Counted from the first letter of the stretch, positions 3,092-52,772 are shown. The stretch: DNA of 64,000 nucleotides from an uncultured Candidatus Saccharibacteria bacterium (GCA_964453135.1 CAYVOL010000003.1:33976-97975); one strand, 5' to 3'. Numbers and translations are program-made. The notes: generated by a model from the letters alone, not told the origin.

Positions 3092-3151
3092 ATTGATCCG
3101 GAATTTTGAAACGTGGAACTTGAAATTTGAAATTTCAATATTGAAATCTTT

Positions 3152-11250: not shown

Positions 11251-11332
11251 TCTTTTAACTTGTAGCATGAAACGTGAAACGCAAAAAAATCTCTTACAAG
11301 GTTACACGCGTTATTTACATGCCATGTGCTAT

Positions 11333-11776
11333 ATGACTAATTATTTACTGCAAAACCTAATAAAACGTTATACGTTATATGTTATACGTTATACGGACAA
11401 GAGGGGGCAGTTGATGATTTTAACGGTTTTGCTTTTGGGCGGGGTTATTATCGGCGTTACTTCCGTGGTAAGTTCATTGATTGTGTATAAAGTCCGTCAG
11501 GCAACCGACGTGGCTGATTCGGCCAAGGCCATTTTCTCCGCGGACGCTGGCCGGGAATTTGAGCTTTATCGCGCCAAAACGGGGTTAGGCGTGCCTTGCC
11601 CTTCTTTCTCCAACGGAGCGAGTTTTCATACCGAGGTAACATACGATGATTCTTCCGGCTTGCTCACTCTTTTTTCCAAAGGAAGCGGAATTAACAACAA
11701 CCGCATTTGGCACGAATTTTTCGCCTCTTCCACTATCGCCACTTCCAGCTATCCCATTAATAAAGATTGCCAATAA
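11333..11776 (+). CDS. hypothetical membrane protein, possibly a GspK/PilX-like minor pilin lacking Glu5
   Basis: The sequence ...DKRG|QLMILTVLLLGGVIIGVTSVV has a Gly before a hydrophobic helix but no Glu5. The start is ambiguous: the ORF opens at 11267, with ATGs at 11324, 11333 and 11414. A 7-nt x4 array (acgttat) lies in the putative leader region. Confidence 0.35.
   Translation: MTNYLLQNLIKRYTLYVIRYTDKRGQLMILTVLLLGGVIIGVTSVVSSLIVYKVRQATDVADSAKAIFSADAGREFELYRAKTGLGVPCPSFSNGASFHTEVTYDDSSGLLTLFSKGSGINNNRIWHEFFASSTIATSSYPINKDCQ
11365..11396 (+). repeat. heptanucleotide tandem repeat (acgttat x4) in the 5' region of a pilin-like ORF
   Basis: Direct reading of acgttat acgttat atgttat acgttat. 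Confidence 0.8.
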
Positions 11777-11824
11777 AAGTTATCCCCATCCCTTCGTTGA
11801 CAGGAGTTGAGTGAATGATAAAAT
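11776..11824 (+). promoter_or_regulatory. sigma70-like promoter with upstream AAAGTTATCCCCAT motif (left cassette)
   Basis: The elements are aaagttatccccat (11776-11789), TTGACA (11797-11802), a 16-nt spacer and TAAAAT (11819-11824), about 108 nt upstream of the ATG at 11932. Confidence 0.5.
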
Positions 11825-11931
11825 TAGTAATAATCACAAAACATGAAACGTAAATCTTGAAACTGGAGACAAACAATTGAGACAAGCTCCGAGTTTCAGG
11901 GTTCAAGTTTTATGTTTTAAGATTTTCTCCT

Positions 11932-13023
11932 ATGTTCAAATCTCCTCTTTTCTATATTAATTTAGTTCTTTTAGTAATGATTGTCAGTTTGGCATTGAGC
12001 GTTAATGTCAGCAATTCCCATCTTCCCAATTTTCTCAAAAAAGCCATTGCCCAGGTGCAGTCAATAACCGGCAGCGGCACCACCAACTATCTGGCTGTTT
12101 TCGGACAAACTTCCCCTTCCTATACCATCGGCAATTCCATTATTTATGACAATGGAACTAATGTGGGCATTGGGACGACTAATCCGCTTGTGGGATTGGA
12201 TATTGCCGGAGGACGAGGCATTCAACTATCAGACGGATCGGGCCATTATGTTTCTGCTGGTTTGAGCACTGTTACTCCCGGTTGGGCAGGTTTACATGTT
12301 GGCACCATTGCCGGACCTAATGTAGGCGGAACAGGAGGATTTTTTGCTTATGATTACAATACCAATACAGCAGTGATAGCAAGTACTTATGCTACCCGTA
12401 TTGCTTCTCGCCAAGGATTCATACAGTTCAATGCTTCTGATAACCCGTCCCAGGATCTTGGTCGGATGTGGATTATGGGAAACGGCAACGTCGGTATCAA
12501 TACCACCAGCCCTTCCCAGAGATTAGAAGTTGTTGGCAATGGCAAATTCGGAAGATTCTATGTTGTTGATACTCAATATGGCGGCGGTCCTTATGCTCCC
12601 GGCATCGGGACAGATGGAACCAACACCGGCGTTGCCGCAAATGGTGGAGGATTTTACGTCCTCAGTGGTCCTTCTGGCGCTTATGGCAATACTTATGGAA
12701 ATGATTATTGGATTAACTCTGTCGGCAAATGGGCGAGTCAGATGGGGGGAGGATTTGGCTCTTGGAGCGGCCCGTATAGTACGAACACCGCATATACTGC
12801 GGCGACTGACGGATTTGTTGTCGGATATACTTACGCAGGGGGCGATGTTTATTGCGGAGGTTATATTGACACTCCGTTGGGGGTTCGTCGTCAAGATGGC
12901 AGATCAAATCATGATGGCGCACAAGGGACCTATATGGTTCCGGTGCGAAAGGGAGATACCTGGCAGGTAACAGACACCGGTGGTTGCGGATGGACTATTT
13001 ATTGGTTGCCTGCTGGCAGTTGA
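11932..13023 (+). CDS. glycine-rich secreted protein with tail-fibre-like NVGIGTTNP / GINTTSPSQ-LEV repeats (cassette copy A)
   Basis: Signal-peptide-like N-terminus (MFKSPLFYINLVLLVMIVSLALS). Gly/Asn/Thr-rich repeats are of the kind seen in phage tail-fibre and beta-helix adhesin proteins. The first ~85 aa are nearly identical to the minus-strand paralog at 20128-21141. Confidence 0.6.
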   Translation: MFKSPLFYINLVLLVMIVSLALSVNVSNSHLPNFLKKAIAQVQSITGSGTTNYLAVFGQTSPSYTIGNSIIYDNGTNVGIGTTNPLVGLDIAGGRGIQLSDGSGHYVSAGLSTVTPGWAGLHVGTIAGPNVGGTGGFFAYDYNTNTAVIASTYATRIASRQGFIQFNASDNPSQDLGRMWIMGNGNVGINTTSPSQRLEVVGNGKFGRFYVVDTQYGGGPYAPGIGTDGTNTGVAANGGGFYVLSGPSGAYGNTYGNDYWINSVGKWASQMGGGFGSWSGPYSTNTAYTAATDGFVVGYTYAGGDVYCGGYIDTPLGVRRQDGRSNHDGAQGTYMVPVRKGDTWQVTDTGGCGWTIYWLPAGS

Positions 13024-13030
13024 TATAAAT

Positions 13031-13588
13031 ATGAATCATCGTTCTTATTATTATTTTAATCCAGTGGTAAAAATTGTTGTGGCGCTTTTGGTAATTATTT
13101 TGTCTTTTGGCTGGGGCAGTTATTTGGGCAAGCAAAACGAAGCGCGAAAAAATAAAGACAGCGTAGATGGCGCGGTAAGAGAAGCGATGGCGGAGATATT
13201 CGGCAAAGTGTCCGCCAATAATTTGCAAGGGAGAATAGTTTCTGTTTCGGCGGATAAAAAATCAATCGTCGTGGAAATCCCGAGCGTTTTCGGTTTTCCT
13301 CTGCCTAAAAGTTATCAAGACAAGATATTGACGCTTCCCGCTTCAGTGGAAATCATCATGGCCGAGCAGAAAACAGCGCAAGAGTTTGAAAAAGAACTAT
13401 CTTCTTCTAAAAAGAAATCGGGGAGTTTCGGTTTTGTTCCGCCGTCGCCGGTTGTCAATAAGGCGATTTCCGTTGACGAATTGAAAGCCGGAGATCAGAT
13501 AAGTTTTATTGTGGCGGATGCTGGAAAAAATATCCTGGATAATTTCTACGACGTAAATAAAATCGTCGTATCCTCGGCCCGTATTTAA
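13031..13588 (+). CDS. membrane-anchored partner protein of the glycine-rich cassette (copy A)
   Basis: One N-terminal TM helix then a soluble domain. It is about 40% identical over its full length to the 19553-20122 (-) product. The start was moved to the ATG at 13031, just after the upstream stop. Confidence 0.5.
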   Translation: MNHRSYYYFNPVVKIVVALLVIILSFGWGSYLGKQNEARKNKDSVDGAVREAMAEIFGKVSANNLQGRIVSVSADKKSIVVEIPSVFGFPLPKSYQDKILTLPASVEIIMAEQKTAQEFEKELSSSKKKSGSFGFVPPSPVVNKAISVDELKAGDQISFIVADAGKNILDNFYDVNKIVVSSARI

Positions 13589-13591
13589 ACA

Positions 13592-15388
13592 ATGAAAGTG
13601 AAAAATATGTTGTGCCATAAAAAGATATTATTATTGAAAAAACCGCTTTTCTGGAGCGGGCTGTTTTTTGCCGTAATGGCGGTGATGTTTGTTTCGAGCA
13701 TAGATTGGAAAAATACCGCCCAATCCCAGGTAGCCAACTCTGTTTTTGGAAGCGGAACGCCGCACTTTCTGGCCAAGTGGGTGGTGGCAACTAATACCCC
13801 GACTTTAAGAATAGATCCTGCTTCGGCTATAACTCTTGTCGGTTCCACCACGCAATTCCGCGCGTACTACGACCCGGACGGTCCGGGCGGTCCTTCGGCT
13901 GAACAAGACGTCACGGCATCTTCTGTCTGGTCATCGGATAATACTTCTGTTGCCACGGTCAACGGCTCCGGTTTGGCGACAAGCGTCTCTATGGGAACAG
14001 CCCAAATCAGCGCAACGTATTCCGGCTTAAGCGCCTCGGCTTCTTTGACGGTTACCGGGCCTGCCTTCAGGATTGCTCCTGCGTCAGCTACCACTCTTGT
14101 CGGTTCCACTACGCAATTTCGCGCTTACTACGATTCCGACGGATTATTATCCGGCCCCGAAATAGAAGTGACCGCTTCGTCCAACTGGTCTTCTAGCAGC
14201 TCTTCCGTTGCTGCAATAGACAGTTCCGGTTTAGCCACCAGCATTGCCATTGGCACGACCCAAATTGGCGCTTCTTATACTAATCCTTCCGGTGTGACAT
14301 TTACTTCCACCGCTGTTTTGAGAGTCGTTGCTTTTGAGGTCAGGCCACTCTCGGCATCGATTATCACTGGTGCCACTACGTCTTTTAATTCCTGGTTCTA
14401 TAACGGAGCCAGCTGGAGCAATGTTATTTCTAGTTGGTCATCGGCCAGCACCACTATTGCCACAATCAGTCCATCTTCGGGAAGAAGGACCGTTGCTACC
14501 GGTAAAAATAACGGCACAACCCAGATTAAAGCCAGATATAGCAGCGCGATAGGGTCTCTTAACGCAGCTGCTGATTTGACAGTTGGAGTCGCCGGTCCTG
14601 TTAATGGCGTTTGCGGTCCGGCTAACGGCGGAACTTACGCCACTACTCCGCCGGCGGGCGACTTATGTTCCAACGGCTCTGCTTCGTCGGTCTCCGGCAG
14701 CGGCACTCCCACTTGGACCTGGACTTGCAATGGCTCGGGCGGCGGGACCAACGCTTCTTGCTCGGCCACCAACAGCGGCATACCGGCAAATACGCCTCCC
14801 AGCGCATCAAGTTTGTCTATAAGCGTCGCTGCCGGCACGAGCGATAATTTAACCGCGGATTGCAAAATCAGAGATAGCGCTGTTTTCAACTGGAGCTTCT
14901 CCGACCCTGACTCCGGAGATTCTCAAAGCGCTTTTCAAATAAAAGTTTATTCTGACGGCGCGTTAACTAATTTAGCGCTGGATACAAACAAAATTACTTC
15001 TTCTGTTTCCTCTTATTCTACCTCAACTTTATCCGCGGGAACTTATTATTGGAAGATGATGGTGTGGGATAACCATAATGCCTCGTCTTCCTGGGTTATA
15101 GCCCCGTCTTCTTTCACTATCACAGAACAACAAGCGATTAACTTCACCTGGTCCCCCACAACTCCTATATTCAACAGCACGGTTACTTTTACTGCCAACA
15201 GCACTATTCCCATTGCTTCCTACTACTGGCAATTTATCAGCGGCAATCCGTCTGCAGTTTACGGCAATCCGGCAACCACTACTTTTTCCAGTATTGGTTC
15301 AAAGGCGATTACCTTGATTCCTACAACCTCAGGGGGGAAAACCTGTTCTATAAGCCGTAATGTTGTTGTGGGCGGAGGCGGAGAGTAA
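13592..15388 (+). CDS. large secreted surface protein with three Big_2-type Ig-like repeats, a Cys-rich module and a C-terminal PKD/Fn3-like domain
   Basis: N-terminal TM/signal. Three about 95-aa repeats (ITLVGSTTQFRAYYD...SASLTV), the first two nearly identical at DNA level. Then a CGPANGG...C...C...C segment and an NFTWSPTTPIFNSTVTFTANS PKD-like motif. Confidence 0.7.
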   Translation: MKVKNMLCHKKILLLKKPLFWSGLFFAVMAVMFVSSIDWKNTAQSQVANSVFGSGTPHFLAKWVVATNTPTLRIDPASAITLVGSTTQFRAYYDPDGPGGPSAEQDVTASSVWSSDNTSVATVNGSGLATSVSMGTAQISATYSGLSASASLTVTGPAFRIAPASATTLVGSTTQFRAYYDSDGLLSGPEIEVTASSNWSSSSSSVAAIDSSGLATSIAIGTTQIGASYTNPSGVTFTSTAVLRVVAFEVRPLSASIITGATTSFNSWFYNGASWSNVISSWSSASTTIATISPSSGRRTVATGKNNGTTQIKARYSSAIGSLNAAADLTVGVAGPVNGVCGPANGGTYATTPPAGDLCSNGSASSVSGSGTPTWTWTCNGSGGGTNASCSATNSGIPANTPPSASSLSISVAAGTSDNLTADCKIRDSAVFNWSFSDPDSGDSQSAFQIKVYSDGALTNLALDTNKITSSVSSYSTSTLSAGTYYWKMMVWDNHNASSSWVIAPSSFTITEQQAINFTWSPTTPIFNSTVTFTANSTIPIASYYWQFISGNPSAVYGNPATTTFSSIGSKAITLIPTTSGGKTCSISRNVVVGGGGE

Positions 15389-15419
15389 TAAGTCCGGTGT
15401 AATTTGTGATGAAAATAAT

Positions 15420-15453
15420 AAACTCCCCCGCTAAAGCGGGGGAGTTTATTTGG
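15420..15453 (+). terminator. rho-independent terminator
   Basis: Perfect 12-bp GC-rich stem aaactcccccgc / gcgggggagttt with a taaa loop, followed by atttggt, 30 nt after the stop of the Big_2 gene. Confidence 0.8.
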
Positions 15454-15487
15454 TGAGGAAAATGGGATAAAATTAGTTTTAAGCCAA

Positions 15488-18079
15488 TTGTTTTTGTTAT
15501 TTAATATATTCAAGTGTTATTCAATGATTTACAACCATCAGAAAATTGAAAAGAAGTGGCAAGCGTTTTGGGAGAAGAGCGGAATTTATAGAATTAAGAA
15601 AAACAGAAATAAAAAGAAATTTTATGTTCTGGATATGTTTCCTTATCCGTCCGGCGATGGGCTCCATGTGGGGCATCCCCGCGGCTACATTGCCACTGAT
15701 GTGGCGGCGCGTTTTAAAACAATGAAGGGGTATGAGGTTTTACATCCTATGGGCTGGGACGCTTTCGGGCTTCCGGCCGAAAATTTCGCCTTAAAAAACA
15801 AAATTCATCCGCGATTGGCTGTTGCTAAAAATATCAAAAGGTTTAAAAATCAGCTTAAAATGTTCGGTTTTACTTATGACTGGAGCCGCGAGATAAACAC
15901 CACGGATGAAAAATATTATAAATGGACGCAATGGATTTTTCTTCAAATGTTTCACGCCGGTTTGGCTTACGAATCTTTTGAGCCGATTAATTGGTGTCCT
16001 TCGTGCAAGACCGGTTTGGCCAATGAAGACTTGGAAGACGGACGCTGTGAGCGTTGCGGCAGTATTGTGGAAAAAAAGCCGTTAAGGCAATGGGTTTTGA
16101 AAATGACCGCTTACGCCGAACGCCTGCTTAAAGATTTGAAATTTCTTGATTGGCCACTTTCTATTGTTGAGCAGCAGAAAAACTGGATAGGAAAATCGGA
16201 GGGAGCGCTCGTAGAATTCAAGATTCAAGATTCAAGATTCAAGATTGATGTATTTACCACGCGGGTTGATACGATTTTCGGATGCACTTATGTGGTGGTG
16301 GCGCCGGAACACGAGGTTATTAAGAATTTAACATTTAGAATTAAGAATTTCGGGGAAGTAGAGAGATATATTGGGGAAGCGAAGAAAAAATCTGATTTGC
16401 AGAGAACTGATTTGGCCAAAGAAAAAACCGGAGTTGAATTGAAGGGCGTGGAAGCGATTAATCCGTTTAACGGCGAAGCGGTGCCTGTTTTTGTCGCGGA
16501 TTACGTTTTGGCGGATTATGGAACCGGCGCGGTAATGGCAGTACCGGCGCATGACAAACGTGATTACGATTTTGCTCTAAAATACGGTTTATCAATTAAA
16601 CGGGTAATTGTTTCAAATAATACACAAGTTCAGAATGATAATTCCAAATCACAAAATTTAAAACAAGCTTTTGAAGATGACGGGATTTTGGTTGATTCGG
16701 GAGATTTCACCGGTTTGATTTCGGCTAGGGCGCGGCAAGAAATGGCAAAGTGGCTGAAAAAAAATAAATTGGGGGAAGAAAAGACAAATTATAAAATGCG
16801 CGATTGGGTTTTCAGCCGCCAAAGATATTGGGGAGAGCCTATTCCGCTAATTTTTTGTCCAGCGTGCAAAGAATCAATCCAAGATCCAAGATCCAAGATC
16901 CAAGATTCAAGATTCAGTCAGGGCGAATTGTTAAACCCCGGCTGGATAGGGGTGGAAGAAAAAAATTTACCCGTAAAACTGCCGGAGGTGAAATCTTATG
17001 AGCCATCCGGCACGGGCGAATCTCCTTTGGTAAATATTAAAAAATGGGTGAATGTGAAATGTCCTAAATGTGGCGGAAAAGCCAAACGGGAAACCAATAC
17101 TATGCCGCAGTGGGCCGGTTCCTGCTGGTATTATTTGCGTTTCATTGATCCGAGAAATAATAAGGCATTGGTTGATAAAAAAAAGGAAAAAGAATGGATG
17201 CCGGTTGATTTATACGTGGGCGGGGTGGAACACGCCACCCGCCATTTGCTCTATGCCCGTTTTTGGCACAAATTTTTATACGATATCGGAGCGGTTTCCG
17301 CCAAAGAACCTTTCAAAAAGCTCGTCAATCAAGGGTTGATTTTGGCGGCTGACGGCCGCAAGATGTCCAAACGATGGGGAAATGTGATAAATCCGGACGA
17401 TATGATTGAGCAATTCGGCGCGGACTCTTTGCGTTTGTACGAAATGTTTTTAGGTCCTTTTGCGCAGCATATTGCCTGGAATATGGACGGGATAAGGGGA
17501 ATGAAAAGATTTTTGGACAGAATTTATAAAACAATATCAAAACCTAAAAGTCAAAGCCCGAAACTCAAAGTTAAAAATCAAAAATTAGAGAGATTACTGC
17601 ATCAAACTATTAAAAAAGTGACGGAAGATATCGAAGGTTTTAGGTTTAACACGGCGATTTCTTCTTTAATGATTTTATTTAACGAAATGGAACGAGAAAA
17701 CAGCGGATTAGAAATAAAACATTGCGAGTTATTTCTAAAATTACTGGCGCCGTTTGCTCCGCATATCGCAGAGGAAATATGGCAAAATTTGCGACGCAAT
17801 AATAGCGGTAAAAACGCGCGCCGCACCGTTTTCCAAAGCATTCATTCAGAGTTATGGCCCGGATATAACAAGAAATTGATTGAAGAAGAATTATTTGAAC
17901 TGGTGGTGCAAATTAATGGTAAAGTAAAAGACAAAGTTAAAGCCCATGCCGGTATTTCCCAAAAAGAAGCGGAGGAAATGGTTTTTGCTTTGCCTAAAAT
18001 CAGAGAGCTGTTAAAAGGAAAATCCGCGCGGAAAATTATTTTTGTTCCCGGAAGGTTGATCAATCTCGTTATCGCGTAA
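15488..18079 (+). CDS. leuS: leucyl-tRNA synthetase
   Basis: HIGH motif (HVGHPRGY) and KMSKS motif (KMSKRWGN), with a CP1 editing region. 863 aa. It contains two in-frame 7-nt tandem arrays. Confidence 0.95.
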   Translation: MFLLFNIFKCYSMIYNHQKIEKKWQAFWEKSGIYRIKKNRNKKKFYVLDMFPYPSGDGLHVGHPRGYIATDVAARFKTMKGYEVLHPMGWDAFGLPAENFALKNKIHPRLAVAKNIKRFKNQLKMFGFTYDWSREINTTDEKYYKWTQWIFLQMFHAGLAYESFEPINWCPSCKTGLANEDLEDGRCERCGSIVEKKPLRQWVLKMTAYAERLLKDLKFLDWPLSIVEQQKNWIGKSEGALVEFKIQDSRFKIDVFTTRVDTIFGCTYVVVAPEHEVIKNLTFRIKNFGEVERYIGEAKKKSDLQRTDLAKEKTGVELKGVEAINPFNGEAVPVFVADYVLADYGTGAVMAVPAHDKRDYDFALKYGLSIKRVIVSNNTQVQNDNSKSQNLKQAFEDDGILVDSGDFTGLISARARQEMAKWLKKNKLGEEKTNYKMRDWVFSRQRYWGEPIPLIFCPACKESIQDPRSKIQDSRFSQGELLNPGWIGVEEKNLPVKLPEVKSYEPSGTGESPLVNIKKWVNVKCPKCGGKAKRETNTMPQWAGSCWYYLRFIDPRNNKALVDKKKEKEWMPVDLYVGGVEHATRHLLYARFWHKFLYDIGAVSAKEPFKKLVNQGLILAADGRKMSKRWGNVINPDDMIEQFGADSLRLYEMFLGPFAQHIAWNMDGIRGMKRFLDRIYKTISKPKSQSPKLKVKNQKLERLLHQTIKKVTEDIEGFRFNTAISSLMILFNEMERENSGLEIKHCELFLKLLAPFAPHIAEEIWQNLRRNNSGKNARRTVFQSIHSELWPGYNKKLIEEELFELVVQINGKVKDKVKAHAGISQKEAEEMVFALPKIRELLKGKSARKIIFVPGRLINLVIA
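16217..16246 (+). repeat. heptanucleotide tandem array (caagatt x4) inside leuS
   Basis: The sequence gaa ttcaagattcaagattcaagattcaagatt gat encodes FKIQDSRFKID. Confidence 0.85.
16879..16915 (+). repeat. heptanucleotide tandem array (ccaagat x4 + tcaagat) inside leuS
   Basis: The sequence ccaagatccaagatccaagatccaagattcaagattcag encodes IQDPRSKIQDSRF. Confidence 0.85.
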
Positions 18080-18084
18080 TTCGC

Positions 18085-19536: not shown

Positions 19537-19552
19537 ATACCCGTCACCCCGA

Positions 19553-20122
19553 TTATCTTTGCACGGATATTTGAGTAGGAGTAATCTCTGAAAGCAGAAT
19601 AGCTGATTTGCCTGCAGGATTATTAAAGGTAAAAGTTATATTATCTCCTGTTTTTAAGTCATTGATTGTTATTCCTTTTTCCGAAAAAGGAAGGGGCGGA
19701 GAAACGGACATCATGCCTCTGGTTTTTCTTGCTTTAGCCTGATATTCCGCAAGCTCTTTATTGAAAGCTTCGGCGGTTTTGTTTTCTTTTAGGGTTATTG
19801 CAACGCCGTCTTTAATCAATAAATTTTTGTTTTGATAAATTTTAGGGATATTGACGCCCATTATGGAAGGAACAATTACATTTATAGATTTTTCAGCAAT
19901 ATTGATTTTGGTTACCCGGCCGATAAGAGAAGAAGCCGCCATATTGCCGAAAATTTCCTCAATAAGTTGATTTTGCTGTTGTTGCGCTAAAAGTAATTCC
20001 TGATTTTGCCCGTATATTTTTCCGGCAAGATAGCCGAAATGATAAAGAAGATAACCCCCGCCAATTATCAAAATGGCAATAATTAACAAAAGGCCTGTTT
20101 TTATTAATTGAGTTTGATTCAT
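19553..20122 (-). CDS. membrane-anchored partner protein of the glycine-rich cassette (copy B)
   Basis: Paralog of 13031-13588 with the same N-terminal TM and conserved blocks (e.g. VSVSADKKSIVVEIPSV / TKINIAEKSINVIVPSI). Confidence 0.5.
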   Translation of the reverse strand: MNQTQLIKTGLLLIIAILIIGGGYLLYHFGYLAGKIYGQNQELLLAQQQQNQLIEEIFGNMAASSLIGRVTKINIAEKSINVIVPSIMGVNIPKIYQNKNLLIKDGVAITLKENKTAEAFNKELAEYQAKARKTRGMMSVSPPLPFSEKGITINDLKTGDNITFTFNNPAGKSAILLSEITPTQISVQR

Positions 20123-20127
20123 AGAAT

Positions 20128-21141
20128 TTATTGCAACGGCATCCAGTACGCCCATACATAGCAAGGTCCCCGATCTATTCCTAACGCTATGGTATAAGAT
20201 TCTCCATTTTTTATTGGGGCAGTCACGGACTCCGATTCAACACCGTTTCCGTTAATATTATTTTGAGTTATTTTCGCCCCGCTTGCCCATATTTCTAATC
20301 CACAATGAGGCCGAGTACCGCCACTAGAGGTATCGAGACTAGCGGTAACGAATCCATCGGCACTCGCGGTAGAACTATATACTGTCGGACGCGTTCCGTC
20401 GCCATTATATACTTGGGATGCCAATAGCGTTCGCGTTTGAAAACTCTTTGACATCTGGCTTGCCCATTTACCGACAGAATTTATCCAATAATCTTGAGCA
20501 TATACATTATTATAGGCAGAATTATTACCATTCATTACATAAAGACCACCATTGCTTAATGTGCCAATTACATTGCCATCAGTTCCAATTCCAGGAGAAT
20601 AGGTTCCGTATTGACTATCTCCCACGTAAAGTCTACCGAATTTTCCAATACCGGCAACTTCCAATTTTTGGGAAGGGCTGGTTGTATTGATTCCGACATT
20701 GCCAGTGTTGCCGGAAATAAACAGTCGTTCCGTATTGTTGGTGCCAGGGTTATTAGTTAAATCAGCTGAACGTAAATAAAAATTTCCGGAGTTTGGAAAA
20801 TATACCGCTCCACTTCCCTCTCCTCCCATGATGCCAATAGAATTTACCCGTATTGGACCAGCAACATCAAGTTTTGCATACTGGTTTGGATTAGTCGTAC
20901 CTATGCCCACATTGGTTCCGTTATCGTAAATTATGGAATTGCCGATGGTATAGGAAGGGGAAGTTTGTCCGAAAACAGCCAGATAGTTGGGAGTGCCGCT
21001 ACCGGTTATTGACTGCACCTGGGCAATGGCTTTTTTGAGGAAATTGGGAAGATGGGAATTGCTGACATTAACGCTCAATGCCAAGCTGACAATCATTACT
21101 AAAAGAACTAAATTAATATAAAAAAGAGGAGATTTAAACAT
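20128..21141 (-). CDS. glycine-rich secreted tail-fibre-like protein (cassette copy B)
   Basis: N-terminus MFKSPLFYINLVLLVMIVSLALSVNVSNSHLPNFLKKAIAQVQSITGSGT... is about 96% identical at DNA level to copy A, diverging after roughly 330 nt. Start set at the ATG corresponding to copy A (the ORF opens at 21162). Confidence 0.6.
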   Translation of the reverse strand: MFKSPLFYINLVLLVMIVSLALSVNVSNSHLPNFLKKAIAQVQSITGSGTPNYLAVFGQTSPSYTIGNSIIYDNGTNVGIGTTNPNQYAKLDVAGPIRVNSIGIMGGEGSGAVYFPNSGNFYLRSADLTNNPGTNNTERLFISGNTGNVGINTTSPSQKLEVAGIGKFGRLYVGDSQYGTYSPGIGTDGNVIGTLSNGGLYVMNGNNSAYNNVYAQDYWINSVGKWASQMSKSFQTRTLLASQVYNGDGTRPTVYSSTASADGFVTASLDTSSGGTRPHCGLEIWASGAKITQNNINGNGVESESVTAPIKNGESYTIALGIDRGPCYVWAYWMPLQ

Positions 21142-21251
21142 AGGAGAAAATCTTAAAAACATAAAACTTGAACCTTGGAACTTGGAACTCGTCTCAATTA
21201 TTTATCCCCAGTTTCAAGATTTATATTTTATGTTCTGTGATTATTACTCTA

Positions 21252-21301
21252 ATTTTATCATTCACTCAACTCCTGTCAACGAAGGGATGGGGATAACTTT
21301 T
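21252..21301 (-). promoter_or_regulatory. sigma70-like promoter with AAAGTTATCCCCAT motif (right cassette)
   Basis: Reverse complement reads aaagttatccccatcccttcgTTGACAggagttgagtgaatgaTAAAAT, near-identical to 11776-11824. Confidence 0.5.
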
Positions 21302-21307
21302 TGAGTG

Positions 21308-22297: not shown

Positions 22298-22364
22298 TGA
22301 TTAATTATAGCAACATATCTTAAACTTACAAAGGCAGATGAAATAGTTTATAGAGTTAATGTAA

Positions 22365-22576
22365 GAAATCCGAGCGTTGTTTACATTTCGGAATATTGAC
22401 CACTGGCGTTCCCGACCTTACTGTCATTCTGAGTCCGCCAGCTGGCGGACGAAGAATCTTACGGAGATCCTTCGCCCCGCCACAGCAGGGCTCAGGATGA
22501 CAAAAACGGTCAGGATGACCAAAATGTTCAGGATGACAATAAAAAACTACGACGAAAAGCGTAAATAACGCTATGA
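22365..22576 (+). repeat. dispersed ~200-nt structured element, copy 1 (candidate ncRNA / MITE-like)
   Basis: Shares gaaatccgagcgttgtttacatt...tgtcattctgagtccgccagctggcgg...gatccttcg...cccgcc...ggctcaggatgacaa...gtaaataacgct with 26668-26878 and 56461-56655. Confidence 0.6.
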
Positions 22577-22673
22577 TTTTACATACAAAGTTTGTAAAGT
22601 TGTAAGGTCTATATAGTTTGCAAGGTGTATAAGATTTATAAATATCAATTTAATGCAATGATATCAATGAAAG

Positions 22674-23552: not shown

Positions 23553-23554
23553 GA

Positions 23555-23640
23555 AACTTGAATCTTGAAACTTGAAAATTGAATCGCGCAACTTGAATCT
23601 TGGAACTTAGATCTTGAATCCTGATACTTGGCACTTAATA
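23555..23640 (+). repeat. 7-nt-period tandem array (NNCTTGA units) between convergent genes
   Basis: Units read aacttga atcttga aacttga aaattga ... aacttga atcttgg aacttag atcttga atcctga tacttgg. Confidence 0.8.
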
Positions 23641-25323: not shown

Positions 25324-25410
25324 TGATTAAAGTATAGCAGGAATTCGCAGCGCCTTAAAGATTAAAAAGGCAAAGGATTAAATGGATTGTTTAATCAGAT
25401 AATACAAGAG

Positions 25411-26049
25411 TTATAGCGAGACGCTGAAATTGTATTTTTTGTCGCGCCAATAACGGGGCACCCTATCAATTCCTACTCTTTTTTTGGCGGTTATTTGCGA
25501 GGGTTTTATTTTTATTCCCCAGTCTTCCAGCCAAAGTCCGGTTTTTCTGTCCGCCGGCAGGCCGTTTAGACTCTTGTCTATTTTCAATAATTTTGTCAGC
25601 CGCGCCGGACCGTTAACCGCCGAATAAGGAGCGTTCGGGGATTTATTAATGACAACGCCGCTTCTGATTAAAATCGCCGCCGGATAATTTTTAGGACCAA
25701 CAACGACATTAAGCATCCAGTGCATCCCGTAGGTGAAATAAACATAAAAAATTCCGGCCGAGCCGAACATGATTTTATTTCTCTCCGTTTTTCCGATAGA
25801 GGCGTGAGAGGCTTTATCTTGAAAGCCGTCATAGATTTCCACTTCTGTAATGATAAGCGCTGTTTCGCGGCGCGCGGAGGTGTTTTGTTTGGAAACAGCC
25901 GCGGCTGGAAAGCGGCGCATCAAAATTTTGCCCAGCATATTTTTAGCGGTTTTAACAGCGGGGCGATTAAAAAAATCGGAAGAAATTTTTTTCCCTTGAC
26001 AATCTTTTTGTAAGAGAAAATATTTTTTTGGTTGCGAACTTTTCTTCAT
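25411..26049 (-). CDS. DNA-3-methyladenine (methylpurine) glycosylase, Mpg/AAG family
   Basis: The blocks FFNRPAVKTAKNMLGKILMRR, ...IITEVEIYDG and ...HASIGKTERNKIMFGSAGIFYVYFTYGMHWMLNVV resemble the MPG family. Confidence 0.65.
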   Translation of the reverse strand: MKKSSQPKKYFLLQKDCQGKKISSDFFNRPAVKTAKNMLGKILMRRFPAAAVSKQNTSARRETALIITEVEIYDGFQDKASHASIGKTERNKIMFGSAGIFYVYFTYGMHWMLNVVVGPKNYPAAILIRSGVVINKSPNAPYSAVNGPARLTKLLKIDKSLNGLPADRKTGLWLEDWGIKIKPSQITAKKRVGIDRVPRYWRDKKYNFSVSL

Positions 26050-26067
26050 TGAGTTAATATTCTATCA

Positions 26068-26601
26068 ATGGATTATCAAAATCATCAAGCCGCGGCAGAG
26101 GCGATGCTTTTTGTCTACGGGGAGCCGCTGGAGATTAAAAGGATGGCCGGTCTTTTGAGCATCAGCGAAGAAGAAGCAAAAGCCGCTGTTGCGAACCTGG
26201 GGAAAAGCTTGGAAGATTCTCAGAGGGGATTAACCCTGCTTTTTAATAACAACCGTGTTCAACTGGCGACCAAAAAGGAATTTCATTCTTTGGCGGAAGC
26301 ATTGATTAAAAGCGAATTTGAAGAAAATTTGACTCCGGCGGCTTTGGAAACTTTATCAGTTGTTGTTTACCTTGGTCCGGTTTCCCGACCCAAAATTGAT
26401 TACATCAGGGGAGTGAATTCATCTTATACTGTCCGCAATCTGATGTTAAGGGGGCTGATTGAGCGCGTTTCGGACGGCAAAAGCGGAAACGCTTTTTTGT
26501 ATCAGGCAAGTTTTGATTTGCTGAAACATTTGGGAATTTCCCGGATTTCCGAATTGCCGGATTACGGGAAATATAAAGAGTTGGCGGAAAAAACTTCCTG
26601 A
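26068..26601 (+). CDS. scpB: segregation and condensation protein B
   Basis: Two winged-helix repeats with the conserved AEAMLFVYGEPL and PKIDYIRGVNSSYTVRNLMLRGLIERV blocks. Confidence 0.8.
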   Translation: MDYQNHQAAAEAMLFVYGEPLEIKRMAGLLSISEEEAKAAVANLGKSLEDSQRGLTLLFNNNRVQLATKKEFHSLAEALIKSEFEENLTPAALETLSVVVYLGPVSRPKIDYIRGVNSSYTVRNLMLRGLIERVSDGKSGNAFLYQASFDLLKHLGISRISELPDYGKYKELAEKTS

Positions 26602-26667
26602 TGTTCGTTGTAGCGCGGCATAGGGATGAGAGGCAAGGATATTGCCGGGGTATGACTTGGTTTGCAA

Positions 26668-26878
26668 GAAATCCGAGCGTTGTTTACATTTTGGAATGTT
26701 GACTATTGGGGTGTGCCCGACGGCCCCACTCCTGCCATTCTGATCCGCCAGCCGGCGGAGAAGAATCTTAAGAGATCCTTCGTCCGCCCCGCCATGGCGG
26801 GGCGGGACTCAGGATGACAATAAAAACGTTTAGGATGACAATTAAAAAACAGCGATGAAAAGTGTAAATAATGCTATG
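26668..26878 (+). repeat. dispersed ~200-nt structured element, copy 2
   Basis: See copy 1. It has the same termini and internal palindromes (ccgccagccggcgg; ccccgccatggcgggg). Confidence 0.6.
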
Positions 26879-26921
26879 AAATCTTACACATAGTTTATTA
26901 CTAATCGTTACATTGTATTAA

Positions 26922-27875
26922 TTGAACAAAGCGATGCGCAGAAAATTTTTGTTTTTATTTATTATTATTGTGATAGCGGCGGCATTATTCAGCTGGGGGA
27001 CGAGAAAAGATTCTAAAATAGCGGAAAGCAAGGCAGAGACGCAGGCGGCTGATAGCAAATTAGACATTAATGTCCCTTTAAGCGATGGTTCGGAAATCAT
27101 CTCGCGCAATTTCTTGGCTACTTCTTCGGAAGAAGTTTCTAATTTTCACTGCGCTGGCGATTTTTTGGGCGGCTTTTTGACAGCGCGCGCTGTTTTGGTT
27201 CGTTATCTTAACGGAGAGGGAAGTTTTTTGGAATTGAACAAAGGTATTCGCTGGCCCACGGCTTCTTTGGCTAAATTGATGACCTCGCTTGTGGCTTTGG
27301 AAAATATCAAGGGCGATAAAGAAATTAAAATTACCAACGGAATAATTTTAGAAAATACTCCGTTGAAATTCGGGGAAGGAGAAATTTACACGATGGCTGA
27401 TTTAATGAAAGCGATGCTGGCAGTTTCCAGCAATAGCGCGGGGGAAGCCATTGCCGACGATTTCGGCAAGGCTCAATTTATTGAACTGATGAACAGGAAA
27501 GCGGCAAGTTTGGGAATGAATGAAACAAGTTTTTACGACGCCAGCGGCATTTCGGCTTCCGACCAATCAACCACCGATGACTTATTCAAGTTATTGAGTT
27601 ATATTTATAATGCTCGGCCGGAAATTCTTCAGTATGCGCGCGCGCAGAAAAGTGTTATTACGGAATTAAACAGCCGGCGGAAAATTGTTTTGAATAATGC
27701 CAATCAATTCGTTGGAGAGCCGGATTATTTGGGAGGAAAAACTGGAACGACCGACGCCGCGGGACAGAATCTCATCTCATTGTTTTCTTTTCATAAACAG
27801 CCGCTGGCGGTTATCATTTTAGGAAGCCAAAACAGGTTTGAAGAAGCAAGACAATTGTTGAATTGCGTTGAATGA
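26922..27875 (+). CDS. serine-type D-Ala-D-Ala carboxypeptidase (peptidase S11 / PBP5-like, low-MW PBP)
   Basis: The three active-site motifs are SxxK (ASLAKLM), SxN (SSNSA) and KTG (GGKTGTT). N-terminal TM anchor. Confidence 0.75.
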   Translation: MNKAMRRKFLFLFIIIVIAAALFSWGTRKDSKIAESKAETQAADSKLDINVPLSDGSEIISRNFLATSSEEVSNFHCAGDFLGGFLTARAVLVRYLNGEGSFLELNKGIRWPTASLAKLMTSLVALENIKGDKEIKITNGIILENTPLKFGEGEIYTMADLMKAMLAVSSNSAGEAIADDFGKAQFIELMNRKAASLGMNETSFYDASGISASDQSTTDDLFKLLSYIYNARPEILQYARAQKSVITELNSRRKIVLNNANQFVGEPDYLGGKTGTTDAAGQNLISLFSFHKQPLAVIILGSQNRFEEARQLLNCVE

Positions 27876-27982
27876 TAACAGATTCGCAGTTCGTAAAGTT
27901 TATGAAGTTTTTAAGGTTATAACGGGAGATAATTATATCCTCAATTAACTTTATGAATTTTATAAACTTTTAACTATGTTCT

Positions 27983-29059
27983 ATGCACACCCAAGTTTTT
28001 TTATTGGTTAAATTCATCGGGTTTTTTATTTTCTCTTTTTTGATTGCCGCTGTTTTGGCGCCGATTTTGATTCATTATCTTTATAAGTACAAGGCCTGGA
28101 AGAAACAATCGCGTTCGCGGACAATCGGAGGTTATGAAACCCCTATTTTTCAAAAATTTCACGCCGAGAAAGAAGTGAAGACTCCACGGATGGGCGGCAT
28201 TCTTATTTGGGTAACCGTCCTGATTGTTTCTGTTATTGCTTTTTTAGCGTCCTATTTTTTCCCGAATTCTTTTATGGGGAAAATAAATTTTCTAAGCCGT
28301 AAAGAAACCTGGCTGCCTTTGTTCAGTTTGGTGGCGTCTTCTTTATTAGGATTGGCTGACGATTTAATGACAATAGGCAACAATGGCCGGTATATCGGCG
28401 GGGGAATAAGAGCGAGGTGGCGCATAGGGCTTGTTTTGGCGATAGCTTTGGCGGGCGCCTGGTGGTTTCATTTTAAGCTGGGCTGGAATTCCATTTACAT
28501 TCCTTTTTATGGGAATGTGATGATTGACGGCTGGTATTTGTTGCTTTTTATAATTGTTGTCTTGGCTACTTTTTCCACCGGCGTGGTGGACGGATTGGAC
28601 GGCTTATCAGCCGGGGTTTTGGCGCCAATTTTTGCTTCTTTCGGGATCATCGCTTATTCGCGGGCAGAGTATGATTTGGCGACTTTTATCGCGATTATTA
28701 TCGGAGCGCTCACCACTTATTTATGGTTCAACGTTCCGCCGGCGCGCTTTTATATGGGAGAAACCGGCATAATGGGCTTGACTGTTGTCTTGGCGGTGAT
28801 TGCCGCGCTGACTAATTCCATTTTCTTTTTGCCCATTATTGGAATGGTTTTGGTTATTGAGGCGATGTCGGTAATTATTCAGCTTATTTCCAAACAATTG
28901 CGCGGAGGAAAAAAAGTTTTTTTGGCCGCGCCCATCCACCATCATTTTGAGGCCAAGGGCTGGAGTGAGGCGCAGATTACCATGAGATTTTGGATTCTCT
29001 CGGCCGTGTTTTCCGGTTTGGGGTTGATTTTATATTTCGCGAGCAGATTTTTGTACTAA
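27983..29059 (+). CDS. mraY: phospho-N-acetylmuramoyl-pentapeptide transferase
   Basis: The MraY signature blocks MGGILIW, GLADD, DGLDGL, NVPPARFYMGETG and APIHHHFE are present in a 10-TM protein. Confidence 0.9.
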   Translation: MHTQVFLLVKFIGFFIFSFLIAAVLAPILIHYLYKYKAWKKQSRSRTIGGYETPIFQKFHAEKEVKTPRMGGILIWVTVLIVSVIAFLASYFFPNSFMGKINFLSRKETWLPLFSLVASSLLGLADDLMTIGNNGRYIGGGIRARWRIGLVLAIALAGAWWFHFKLGWNSIYIPFYGNVMIDGWYLLLFIIVVLATFSTGVVDGLDGLSAGVLAPIFASFGIIAYSRAEYDLATFIAIIIGALTTYLWFNVPPARFYMGETGIMGLTVVLAVIAALTNSIFFLPIIGMVLVIEAMSVIIQLISKQLRGGKKVFLAAPIHHHFEAKGWSEAQITMRFWILSAVFSGLGLILYFASRFLY

Positions 29060-29096
29060 ATAAATTTAAAACTTATTTGTATTTTGAGATGGTTAG

Positions 29097-29921
29097 ATGA
29101 TTCAAATGTTTCACTCATTTTTTAAAAGAATAATTCAATTTTTGCTGAAATGGATGGCGAAGGTTTATCTTTGGGAAACGCGGCCTCATGTGATAGTAAT
29201 AAGCGGAACAACTGGTAGATTTTGGATAAAAGAAAAAATCGTGGAAGCTCTCGGGGAGACCAGTCATTTTGTCAGGGCCAACAAGAAAAATTTTAACGCG
29301 GAACTCGGGCTCCCGCTCTCTATTTTGGATTTGCCTTCGGGCAACGGATCTTTTTGGGGCTGGATTAGCGTTTTGCGGCAGGGGGTTTCAGTGATTACTC
29401 ACACTATCAGACGTTCGCGCACGCGCAAGTCTTTTTATCTGGTTTTGGAGATGGCAATTGATCGGCCGGAAAATATGAATTATTTGCTGAAAATCGTTAG
29501 GCCTAACGCCGTTATTTTAACCAACATCACCATGATTTATCAGGAAAATTTTGAGGACTTAGACGAAATTTCCGGAGAATACCGCCAATTGGTGAAATCT
29601 CTGCCTTGGGATGGAATTTTGATTCTTAATAATGACGACGAACGGATAAAAAACTTAAGCCAATTTTTTGACGGAAAAACTATTTTTTACGGATTGAAAG
29701 ACGGAGCTCATTTTCGGGCCATGGATATTATAAGAGAGATAGACGGACAGCGATTTAAGATTGAGGTCAACGGCAAGGAAAAAGAGATTTTTCCGCTTAA
29801 AATTAATCGTTTTGGTCGGCATCATGTTTACGCGGAGCTGGCGAAAAAAATTATTTTAGATAATTTTAAGGCGCCGCAGAGAGATTTTTTCGGAAAAATT
29901 TTAGACGTGGAAAGTCACTAA
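29097..29921 (+). CDS. Mur-ligase-family protein (MurF-like), short and with a degenerate P-loop
   Basis: VIVISGTTGRFWIKEKIVEAL aligns with the Mur ligase GTNGKTT P-loop but reads GTTGRF. ...NFNAELGLPLSIL and ...PNAVILTNI match Mur ligase central-domain blocks. It is only 274 aa and the C-terminal domain is absent. It sits next to mraY, as murF does in dcw clusters. Confidence 0.45.
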   Translation: MIQMFHSFFKRIIQFLLKWMAKVYLWETRPHVIVISGTTGRFWIKEKIVEALGETSHFVRANKKNFNAELGLPLSILDLPSGNGSFWGWISVLRQGVSVITHTIRRSRTRKSFYLVLEMAIDRPENMNYLLKIVRPNAVILTNITMIYQENFEDLDEISGEYRQLVKSLPWDGILILNNDDERIKNLSQFFDGKTIFYGLKDGAHFRAMDIIREIDGQRFKIEVNGKEKEIFPLKINRFGRHHVYAELAKKIILDNFKAPQRDFFGKILDVESH

Positions 29922-29945
29922 AAGTTTTGTTATCACCCATCCCTT

Positions 29946-31745
29946 TCACGCCACCTCCTGTTTGTAGCACTCATCGCAGTAGATGATCTCGGGTCGGTCA
30001 GGGGAATAGGAGGTTTGGAAGGTATTGGGACAGGGATTGGTTCCGTGGAAGTGCTTTGATGTATTCTGGTATTGGTTCTGGTTTTTCAGTTGAGAGGTCT
30101 GGCCTTGGCATTCGCATTGTCTTTCCCAGAGTTTCAAAGGGTTTCTTTGTTTGATTCTCTGGTAATGGCGGCAGTTGGGGCAAAGTCTGGGGAGGGGAAG
30201 ATTCATCTTCCGGTAGAAATCAAGCTCGGGTTTGATGATTTTGAAGGCTTTGGTGCATTGTTCGTTGCAATGGGAGGCGCTATGGGAACATTCTATGACT
30301 TGGCCTACTATGGAGTCTTCTACATCCTTTATATGGTCGGGGAGAGATTCTGAGGGGAGGTCTATTTTGAGGTCTCTATTGGCTTCTTCTTTCCACCTAT
30401 ATCCCTGGCTTTCTGCTTGTTCTTGGGTTAGAGGGAAGTATTCCTGAGCAATGGTTTCGTTGTAGGAGAAGGGAGACAATTCCGGAGGGAAGAATTCTCC
30501 GTACTTGTATATTCTTCCTTGTTTATCTATATAGGGAAGAGTATTCATATGATCTATTATTCTGGGGACTAGTTTTTCATATTCTTCCTTGGTGTATTGC
30601 TTGTTGAGGATACAATACTGCTTGTTGCGGAGGCCTACGCAGCCGAAGAGGTGGGAGGAATTTTGACACCACATTGAATATTGTGTGTCATAAATATCGG
30701 GCACAAGCGGCTTGCTTCCCCACATATTCCAGCAAAAATGCGTGTTATACCCAAGACCTTCTACGAGTTCATACAAAAGATCTCCTCCAGCTATCGCCGT
30801 ATCGAAGCAGTCACGACTTTTATAGAAAAAAATAAGCTGGCAATAAGAACAATCTTCCAAATTTTGGCAGACAAATGAATGTTTGGTGTTTTTACAATGC
30901 TTAAGATAATCGCCGGAAACATTGTTGTTGTTTCTTCCGTGATAGAATTTTTTAGGAAATTGCAGTTGAAATTTTTGCAAGTCATTGTTGAATTTCAAAG
31001 TGCCGTTATAAGAGCCAAGGTCAAACGTTTTCAATTTTTGGAAATATTCTTCCCGGGAGTAGGGATGGTTGAAAATGTGGTATTCTTTGTTTTTTAAGCT
31101 AACGCAACCGAAACAATCGTGGCAATTAATCAGATTTTTGGAAAAGAAAACATTACGACACTCACTGCATTCCGAAGAAAAGAAAACATTGTGGCATTTT
31201 TTGCAGTCGTAGAGCCAATAGCATAATTCTGAACTTTGAACCTCGTCAATATCAAGGGAATCTTTTGTTTCGCTTATGGTTTCTCCATAAGCGATGTTTT
31301 CCGAATTGCCTATATTGAAAGCAAGGTAACAATTTTTGATATTAACCGCTTGATTGCAATAATCGCTGTTGATGTCATTTAAGGCGCCGCGGTGCGGCCA
31401 GGGCATTTTTAACATAGACTCTTTTATTTGTTCAAAAAATGACCTGTTGAAATCATAATCTTTCCCGTATTCCATTGCGTCCCATTTGTCCGACCAAAAA
31501 TAGTCTTCGTGGTAAACTTTGACTGGAGAGTCAGGGGAATACATGGCGATAACTTCTTTGTCTTCTCCTTCAATTTTCCGTTTGTATAAAGTCCGGGTGT
31601 TGCGGAAATTCATTCTTCTAGCCGCCCGGCATTCCGGACAGAACGTCGGCGCCGGAACTTTGATTTTGTTGTAAAACTCAAAATCCTCCGGTTTTATGAT
31701 AAAGTTTTGTTTGCAATTTTGGCAAGATTTTTTTTCGGGATTCAT
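29946..31745 (-). CDS. cysteine-rich protein of unknown function with duplicated terminal zinc-ribbon-like motifs
   Basis: 599 aa with about 40 Cys and many Trp/Tyr/His. N-terminal FIIKPEDFEFYNKIKVPAPTFCPECRAARRMNFRNTRTLYKR and C-terminal FKIIKPELDFYRKMNLPLPRLCPNCRHYQRIKQRNPLKLWERQCEC are clear internal homologs. The central region has repeated CxxC...VFFS units. It is the only minus-strand gene in a + strand block. Confidence 0.5.
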   Translation of the reverse strand: MNPEKKSCQNCKQNFIIKPEDFEFYNKIKVPAPTFCPECRAARRMNFRNTRTLYKRKIEGEDKEVIAMYSPDSPVKVYHEDYFWSDKWDAMEYGKDYDFNRSFFEQIKESMLKMPWPHRGALNDINSDYCNQAVNIKNCYLAFNIGNSENIAYGETISETKDSLDIDEVQSSELCYWLYDCKKCHNVFFSSECSECRNVFFSKNLINCHDCFGCVSLKNKEYHIFNHPYSREEYFQKLKTFDLGSYNGTLKFNNDLQKFQLQFPKKFYHGRNNNNVSGDYLKHCKNTKHSFVCQNLEDCSYCQLIFFYKSRDCFDTAIAGGDLLYELVEGLGYNTHFCWNMWGSKPLVPDIYDTQYSMWCQNSSHLFGCVGLRNKQYCILNKQYTKEEYEKLVPRIIDHMNTLPYIDKQGRIYKYGEFFPPELSPFSYNETIAQEYFPLTQEQAESQGYRWKEEANRDLKIDLPSESLPDHIKDVEDSIVGQVIECSHSASHCNEQCTKAFKIIKPELDFYRKMNLPLPRLCPNCRHYQRIKQRNPLKLWERQCECQGQTSQLKNQNQYQNTSKHFHGTNPCPNTFQTSYSPDRPEIIYCDECYKQEVA

Positions 31746-31785
31746 AAAAATAAATTAGTTTATTGCGCGATATTTTATTATAACG

Positions 31786-31834
31786 ATTTTATCAGAAATT
31801 CCCCCCCCCGCAACAATAAAATGGGGATAACTTT
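31786..31834 (-). promoter_or_regulatory. promoter of the Cys-rich gene, with AAAGTTATCCCCAT upstream motif and a C9/G9 homopolymer in the spacer
   Basis: The minus strand reads aaagttatccccattttattgTTGCGGggggggggaatttctgaTAAAATcg. The motif is at 31821-31834, the -35 at 31809-31814, the G9 tract at 31801-31809 and the -10 at 31786-31791. Confidence 0.45.
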
Positions 31835-31929
31835 TTATAAAACATCAAGTAAACTAACTCATTTATAATTTCTTTATTTTTATTTTAATAGGGAATAGTT
31901 AATTTATAAGGCATTATTGGCGATGCTTT

Positions 31930-36223: not shown

Positions 36224-36227
36224 TCAA

Positions 36228-37373: not shown

Positions 37374-37428
37374 TTTTTGTTATCCACATTGTTTTTAGCC
37401 TGCGAAAACAGGTATAATAGGTAGTGAA

Positions 37429-43903: not shown

Positions 43904-44032
43904 ATAAAACTTGAATCTTAAAACTCAAATCTTGAATTTTAAAATCACAACGAGAACTCTAAACTTGGAAATTCAGTCACAGATATTTTTTAATAGAGAT
44001 TTTGGGTTTTCTTTCTCTAGTTTTGTTATTTT

Positions 44033-52726: not shown

Positions 52727-52772
52727 ATCGTAAATCTTGAATCGTGAATCGTGAATTCTAACCATTCAATCA

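Follow-up and report, generated by a model that had tools for sequence, protein, structure and literature searches.

A recurrent promoter-proximal element with a DnaA-box-like core in a Patescibacteria contig

Three copies of a 15-nt element and the promoters behind them

We describe a short sequence element that stands just upstream of three promoters in a stretch of 64,000 nucleotides (nt), here called the window, from an uncultured bacterium deposited as Candidatus Saccharibacteria (GCA_964453135.1, CAYVOL010000003.1:33976-97975). The closest homologues of its GyrA belong to Wolfebacteria-like Parcubacteria, within the Patescibacteria, the top recorded relative being 89% identical. Along the window gyrA is followed by a type IV pilus block (pilB, pilC, a prepilin peptidase and several pilins), cassette 1, a gene for a Big_2 protein, leuS and cysS, and then by the inverted cassette 2, htrA and, later, a type IV secretion block. 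Two of the three promoters belong to the cassettes. Cassette 1 (11932-13588, + strand) encodes a membrane-anchored protein of 363 amino acids (aa; 11932-13023) and a 202-aa partner (12980-13588); cassette 2 (19553-21162, - strand) encodes a 344-aa paralogue with a 203-aa partner. The third promoter is that of a Cys-rich gene (29946-31745, - strand), whose 599-aa product lacks a signal peptide and is very widespread in Patescibacteria.

An earlier note on this stretch had claimed three identical 14-mers, all facing the downstream gene in the same way. Both points are borne out: a string search finds three exact matches, reading AAAGTTATCCCCAT in the direction of the gene, at 11776-11789 (+), 21287-21300 (-) and 31821-31834 (-), and the orientation is gene-ward in each. 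The start of the second copy had been given as 21288, one base off, and the strand label had been swapped, the literal atggggataacttt lying on the + strand at sites 2 and 3 and not at site 1. The string common to all three copies is 15 nt long, AAAAGTTATCCCCAT, and sites 2 and 3 share 16 nt. Copy 1 (11775-11789, +) is the outer edge of an inverted duplication, and its first base is the last base of the stop codon of an upstream pilin-like open reading frame (ORF); its DnaA-box-like core, TTATCCCCA, occupies 11780-11788. Copy 2 (21301-21287, -) lies 7 nt past the stop codon of the HtrA-like gene, and copy 3 (31835-31821, -) lies in the intergenic region between the Cys-rich gene and a divergent comM-like gene.

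In every copy the gap to the TTG of a -35 hexamer is exactly 7 nt (TTGACA at sites 1 and 2, TTGCGG at site 3), and the hexamer is followed by a 16-nt spacer ending in TGA and then by TAAAAT (spacer, then TGATAAAAT). The promoter layout proposed in the earlier note stands, with the single values of 7 and 16 nt replacing its ranges of 4-7 and 16-17 nt. The cassette 1 promoter (11797-11824, +) has its -35 at 11797-11802, a TG at 11816-11817 and its -10 at 11819-11824; with 11 of 12 consensus positions matched and the TG present, it is the strongest intergenic sigma-70-like match in the window. The cassette 2 promoter (21252-21279, -; TTGACA-16-TAAAAT) is 100% identical to that block. At the Cys-rich gene (31786-31813, -) the -35 TTGCGG at 31813-31808 is followed by the 16-nt spacer, its terminal TGA, and TAAAAT at 31791-31786. 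The element spans about -56 to -42, and its core about -51 to -43, of sigma-70-type extended -10 promoters. Only its nine 5' bases are A/T-rich; the conserved core contains CCCCA.

Identity of the 15-mer alone is weak evidence because exact 15-mer repeats are common in the window: there are dozens of them, and some 20 (~20.6 in first-order Markov shuffles) are expected by chance. Moreover, sites 1 and 2 count as one event, since both belong to the outermost 53 nt of the inverted duplication, which are 100% identical between its arms. One could therefore hold that the element is functionless: duplication would account for sites 1 and 2, site 3 would be a chance repeat of a 15-mer, and the hexamers would be shared simply because promoters are all alike. 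Against this stands the identical offset: when all promoter pairs are considered, ~5e-7 cases are expected in which two independent promoters have the same 15-mer equally far from their -35. All sites in the window are, in addition, non-coding. The pattern TATCC[AC]CA occurs 5 times in the non-coding part of the window, where 0.24 are expected (P = 5e-6), and never in its coding sequence, where 3.9 are expected. Scanning the window for the 14-mer with up to 2 mismatches gave 5 matches (0.89 expected), and a search across it allowing up to 4 mismatches gave no convincing degenerate copies. The variant previously reported upstream of hisS (58449-58461) proved spurious: it shares bases with the ATG of hisS, inside the palindrome CCCCCCATGGGG, and no promoter follows it.

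Recurrence beyond the window

We searched 185,579 species genomes for the pattern AAAAGTTATCCCCAT-N6-8-TTG and searched metagenomes for the exact 15-mer followed, at a fixed N7 gap, by TTG. The genome scan returned 68 loci, about the random expectation, most of them in long ORFs without a -10, and this total would suit an element without function. The identity of the hosts does not: at least 7 of the 68 loci are from named Patescibacteria (Lloydbacteria, Parcubacteria, Magasanikiibacteriota, Kaiserbacteria, Nomurabacteria, Saccharibacteria and "Patescibacteria group"), which gives P ~4e-4 if the group holds no more than ~2% of the bases, a share that we estimated.

Five of the loci from the genome scan are promoter-like (L132, L151, L154, L173 and L189), with TTGnnn, 16-17 nt, TAnnnT and a gene within ~50-150 nt. 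The gap in these is 7 in all five cases and never 6 or 8. Metagenomes contributed further independent intergenic families (L191, L194/L200, L206, L214 and L220), so that public genomes and metagenomes together hold about 10 independent intergenic copies of the arrangement N7-TTG...-10, several of them from named Patescibacteria. A -10-like hexamer lies 29-31 nt past the element in 8 of 27 intergenic-like unique matches as compared with 4 of 56 coding-like ones (P = 0.01). A control set of viral contigs held 121 copies of the 14-mer, of which one had N7-TTG and none was promoter-like. The -35 hexamers of the recurrent promoters are often poor and are combined with an extended -10 (TTGCGG, TTGCGC, TTGCGT), and the genes behind them encode mostly secreted or membrane proteins.

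Relatives of the cassette proteins are distant (at most 42% identical). Four of the six contig families with cassette homologues have TATCC[A/C]CA directly upstream in the gene-ward direction, and the chance of at least four in six is ~8e-9. The sequences read GGTTATCCCCAA-N6-TTGCTA-N16-TAAAAT (L241), GAGTTATCCACAG-N8-TTGCGC (L237) and GCTATCCACAT (L234/L235) upstream of the homologue, and AGTTATCCACAG (L240) at the head of an operon that includes one; no box was found upstream at L238/L239 or L242. The type of box interchanges among these loci, being TTATCCACA or CTATCCACA in L237, L240 and L234 and TTATCCCCA in L241. We also counted boxes in 93 kilobases (kb) of Patescibacteria loci that had been chosen without the motif, and found 5 in non-coding sequence against 0.81 expected (P = 0.0015) and 4 in coding sequence against 5.1 expected. 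Because the box recurs both before homologues and in unselected loci, the exact 15-mer of the window appears to be one realisation of a broader pattern, whose functional core, as judged from these comparisons, is TTATCC(A/C)CA, preferably preceded by (A)AG and followed by G/T.

The absence of any function thus seems to us quite improbable, given the enrichment in Patescibacteria, the presence of a -10 at the right distance only where the gap is 7, and the boxes before cassette homologues in four other contigs. The case for the element rests on its identical offset, its intergenic position and its recurrence elsewhere. We infer that it is a genuine promoter-proximal operator, both positioned and oriented, and very probably a protein-binding site.

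Some of the recurrent loci have features of their own. A set of small, phage- or plasmid-like contigs from Antarctic-lake metagenomes (L194, L199-L201, L204, L216, L218 and L221) shares a conserved control region in which AAAGTTATCCACAG and AAAAGTTATCCCCAT stand in tandem before the promoter; the gene behind it differs, encoding either a ribbon-helix-helix protein or a 99-aa protein. Homopolymers are found at others. The site 3 promoter of the window contains a run of nine G (C9 on the + strand, 31801-31809), of which two end the -35 and seven begin the spacer. L189 has a similar promoter, TTGC-G9-...TGATAGAAT, before an unrelated secreted protein with a peptidoglycan-binding domain, and at L240 (81-110) a C9 run directly follows the box. 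Such tracts could be sites of slipped-strand phase variation.

Likeness to the DnaA box and the candidate binder

Only position 7, where C replaces A, separates the core TTATCCCCA from the DnaA box TTATCCACA, so that 8 of 9 positions match. The element had formerly been put forward as a candidate activator site or variant of the upstream-promoter (UP) element; a protein-binding site is indeed probable, whereas a classical A/T-rich UP element is not what we see, the core being a DnaA box with one mismatch. The former list of sites had also omitted a fourth, related one. A perfect TTATCCACA lies at 37380-37388 (+; context tGTTATCCACAT), where it abuts a -35 region in the same orientation as the three copies; the promoter has its -10, TATAAT, at 37413-37418, and the gene behind it (37429-38259) encodes 276 aa with no family match.

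Further box-like sequences are present in the window. Six sequences within one mismatch of TTATCCACA fall in the 1.2 kb between 36178 and 37388, as compared with a window average of 0.39 per kb. Five of the six, on the - strand and in different frames, fall within a 393-aa ORF (36192-37373) or just upstream of it; this clustering could reflect either a weak group of DnaA boxes or an artefact of codon use. A box scan also located a second TTATCCCCA, inverted, in the 5' untranslated region (5'UTR) of cassette 2 (21202-21210, +); its counterpart in cassette 1 (11866-11880) is degenerate, with TGGAGACAA in place of TGGGGATAA.

The identical 15-mer is found in a five-box cluster of Sporosarcina (L149), in an oriC-like array of Ruminococcus (L142) and in the dnaA-dnaN spacer of a member of the Burkholderiales (L147), where it is accompanied by TGTGGATGA, TTACCCACA and a second, inverted TTATCCCCA (TGGGGATAA). 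Genuine DnaA-box arrays thus make use of the C variant. Most promoter-type loci have no box cluster within 500 nt. The exceptions are L132, with a partner box TTACCCACA 5 nt upstream; L200, with a partner box AAAGTTATCCACAG whose core is 24 nt upstream; L220, with a second copy 116 nt away; and L222 and L248, with an inverted and a tandem pair of boxes, respectively.

DnaA serves as a transcription factor in Caulobacter and Bacillus. In E. coli this role is established, and the sites bound in chromatin immunoprecipitation (ChIP) experiments read (a/g)agTTATCCACA(g/t) (PMC11317965), which the flanks in the window (AAG...T) match. The element resembles the promoter boxes of those organisms (in E. 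coli those of nrdAB, polA, purH and dnaA) in its asymmetric core of 9 base pairs (bp), TTATCC(A/C)CA, with G/AG and G/T flanks, in its place just upstream of promoters, in its occasional partner boxes, and in that its variant recurs in arrays of the dnaA-dnaN and oriC type. It differs from them in being single, in that three of the four sites in the window have C at position 7, where those boxes have an invariant A, and in keeping one orientation and a fixed offset of 7 nt to the -35. Its targets, too, are surface-protein cassettes and a Cys-rich protein rather than nucleotide or replication genes, and its hosts are uncultured Patescibacteria, in which we know it from sequence. Our preferred reading, which we put forward tentatively and would stop short of calling probable, is that the 15-mer is the promoter-proximal operator of a monomeric, asymmetric, site-specific protein, most likely DnaA.

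A number of observations weigh against this reading or limit it. When tested against TTATCCACA or TTWTNCACA, the three copies fail at position 7, which is reportedly invariant in the E. coli consensus TTWTNCACA that Schaper and Messer set out in 1995. No site in the window has a second box 2-5 bp away, that is, none is a double box. In vivo, the DnaA of E. coli favours pairs of boxes separated by 2-3 bp, and many single boxes of perfect sequence stay free of it (PMC11317965). Neither dnaA nor oriC was found around gyrA in the two Wolfebacteria contigs inspected, and the Patescibacteria loci that we examined contained no dnaA signature. A-variant boxes at unselected sites lie at variable distances, 0-13 nt, from the -35, so the fixed geometry is documented mainly for the C variant. 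The genome and metagenome scans are uninformative about tolerated positions, because both required the exact 15-mer and TTG, and the Patescibacteria share behind the enrichment is an estimate. The metagenome families are in part without taxonomic placement, and the genes downstream of the element elsewhere are of mixed function, including one for a TrpR-like protein and others for small cytoplasmic proteins.

The altered position 7 and the single sites without double boxes would also suit a serious alternative, namely that the element is the operator of a dedicated Patescibacteria factor. Such a protein, with a monomeric or tandem helix-turn-helix (HTH), would bind an asymmetric site of ~11-15 bp and act in the class I/II or MarA manner, and the likeness to the DnaA box would be coincidental or reflect a reader similar to DnaA domain IV. 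Fixed offset and orientation are typical of dedicated activators and not of known DnaA-regulated promoters; exact flanks are common to the copies within the genome, and the element is tied to one gene family across genomes. In being non-palindromic, in its constant orientation and -35 spacing, and in its association with weak -35 hexamers such as TTGCGG, it is comparable to asymmetric activator sites (class I/II) such as the marbox of MarA, SoxS and Rob, although its sequence does not resemble the marbox and we saw no gene of the AraC family, and the analogy is one of mechanism only. A search beside each of the sites found no transcription-factor gene, the window encoding a lone histidine kinase only. 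A dedicated factor would also have to accommodate the swapping of TTATCCACA and the C variant before homologous genes, the same 15-mer within the genuine box arrays of three unrelated bacteria, and a spread over very deep Patescibacteria lineages that fits a universal protein better. We consider this alternative possible and worth keeping in view, while doubting it.

A third way to read the same position is that no regulator is involved and that RNA polymerase itself, through the C-terminal domain of its alpha subunit (alpha-CTD) or an extended sigma region, reads a UP-element-like sequence that sets basal strength. The span of about -56 to -42 is the exact zone of UP elements such as that of rrnB P1, the 5' half AAAAGTTAT is A/T-rich, the register to the -35 is fixed, and the element accompanies the strongest promoter matches of the window. 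The core CCCCA/CCACA, on the other hand, is G+C-rich, unlike UP elements, and has the identity of a DnaA box. The conserved part being C-rich and the element not being general to promoters, a direct role as a UP element is unlikely; it is absent from most promoters examined, including those beside ribosomal protein genes in L248 and L250. The variable distances of the A-variant boxes, and tandem or inverted partner boxes that misfit alpha-CTD subsites, point in the same direction.

If the DnaA reading is right, a monomeric, asymmetric protein would occupy the box in one orientation, with the 3' end of the site 7 nt before the -35, and would sit beside RNA polymerase, next to sigma region 4 or the alpha-CTD, where it could modulate initiation. 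DnaA would be the best candidate for this role and would bind through its domain IV. The surface-protein cassettes in the neighbourhood of the pilus genes, the Cys-rich gene and perhaps the comM-like gene would then be tied to DnaA status. The weak -35 hexamers (TTGCGG, TTGCGC) suggest stimulation, or dependence on an activator; the cassette promoters have a perfect TTGACA, however, which would allow either sign of regulation.

A broader and more speculative proposal, about which we are doubtful, is that DnaA, or another reader of DnaA boxes, acts across the Patescibacteria as a fixed-geometry activator from a single box 7-8 nt before the -35 and drives pilus-associated, tail-fiber-like surface proteins. 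Attachment and surface display would in that case be coupled to replication status, and the G/C tracts in some of these promoters could add phase variation. Patescibacteria have very few transcription factors. Literature searches for work on DnaA boxes or promoter motifs from bacteria of the candidate phyla radiation returned nothing relevant, and we regard three points as new information: the element appears to be a DnaA-box variant, it is spread across Patescibacteria, and it is linked to the family of cassette genes. Because these bacteria are mostly uncultured, comparative genomics of cis-elements is a main way into their regulation, and the element would be among the earliest clues to how genes are regulated in this group. 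It offers a hypothesis open to in vitro tests, namely that host-contact proteins are controlled by the cell cycle or through DnaA, as well as a search pattern with which the regulon could be defined in metagenome-assembled genomes, of which there are thousands. Should another protein be the binder, the element would still be a handle on a new lineage-wide regulator.

Target genes, the inverted duplication and other repeats

Thousands of Patescibacteria proteins at ~55% identity belong to the well conserved family of the Cys-rich protein, which has no Pfam or NCBIfam assignment. Its structure model, a confident one (predicted template modelling score, pTM, 0.82), has terminal zinc ribbons around a beta-helix-like core, and a comparison with the PDB gave no significant match. 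The protein looks cytoplasmic and not surface-like. Its gene neighbours are concerned with DNA metabolism, the divergent comM-like gene being followed by one for a uvrD-like helicase, and an orthologue adjoins recA in L001. That orthologue, the closest (57% identical), has no 15-mer upstream and only TTATCCTCA, too near the ATG. The earlier description of the three genes as a surface-protein regulon thus survives in part: the regulon remains plausible, while the surface attribute does not suit a Cys-rich product without a signal peptide, and the genes downstream elsewhere are mixed.

Copy 3 has a divergent promoter on its other side. Read directly from the sequence, a TATAAT at 31864-31869 (+) possibly serves the comM-like gene (31930-33462; Mg_chelatase/ComM-type domains), and copy 3 lies almost midway between the two -10 hexamers, the TAAAAT of the Cys-rich gene being 29 nt and this TATAAT 28 nt away. 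With the distances nearly equal, one bound protein could act on both, and copy 3 may be a control point shared by the Cys-rich and comM-like genes.

The cassette proteins of ~350 aa are membrane-anchored and have tail-fiber-type NVGIGTT(S/N)P repeats, and their homologues are annotated as tail-fiber or Peptidase_S74-type proteins. NCBIfam gave no matches for the regulated proteins, and the structure model of the cassette protein was too poor for use (predicted local distance difference test, pLDDT, 52). The two large proteins are 50% identical overall and nearly identical over the N-terminal ~85 aa, and the partners are 40% identical. At the nucleotide level the inverted duplication pairs 11775 to ~12581 with 20606 to 21301, with copies 1 and 2 inverted and flanking 9.5 kb. 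Identity is 100% in the 53-nt promoter block, 87% in the adjacent 93 nt of 5'UTR and 95% in the first 271 nt of coding sequence, beyond which the arms diverge. The perfectly kept promoter block is itself suggestive, and the gradient hints at gene conversion, or at selection acting on the promoter and the signal-anchor part. The inverted repeat encloses the Big_2 gene, leuS and cysS, so that recombination between the arms would flip the enclosed essential genes and leave the cassette products unchanged.

The position of copies 1 and 2, inverted exactly at the ends of the duplication, and the box that precedes an integrase gene in L248 might suggest that the element is a recombination or mobile site (a duplication end, an invertase target or an attachment site). 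The window contains no recombinase gene, however, copy 3 stands alone, as do those in other genomes, and a mobile unit is not evident because the sequence between element and promoter is not conserved. The element might instead act as RNA, and a consensus scan did call a weak terminator-like hairpin on the opposite strand; the folds on either strand are like those of shuffles (z-scores of -0.9 to +0.9) and there is no Rfam match, and RNA structure or an antisense terminator was rejected on these grounds. Likewise rejected was an opposite-strand mini-ORF, ATGGGGATAACTTTT, encoding MGITF, which is not conserved, the A-variant sites having no ATG. We consider this whole group of explanations very unlikely indeed.

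Rfam and tRNA searches of the window gave no matches. GC skew (the excess of G over C) is uniformly positive throughout, and on that account the window contains no replication origin.

Two further kinds of repeat were seen. An intergenic element of ~170-240 nt is present in three copies (22360-22600, 26663-26900 and 56505-56675), without a match in Rfam; it contains the palindromes TCCGCCAGCTGGCGGA and CCCCGCCATGGCGGGG, a repeated CAGGATGACAA, and GAAAAGTGTAAATAATGC, and its copies lie upstream of + strand genes for an unknown protein, a D-Ala-D-Ala carboxypeptidase and a pilin. The other kind consists of runs repeating every 7 nt (of the types CTTGAAA, TCTTGAA and TTCAAGA), which occupy many short intergenic spacers just past stop codons, as well as the cassette 5'UTRs. 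We located them at 3096-3144, 11250-11284, 11840-11924, 21155-21248, 23553-23624, 43899-43942, 52711-52766 and 58388-58424, and twice inside leuS, at 16216-16246 and 16884-16914.

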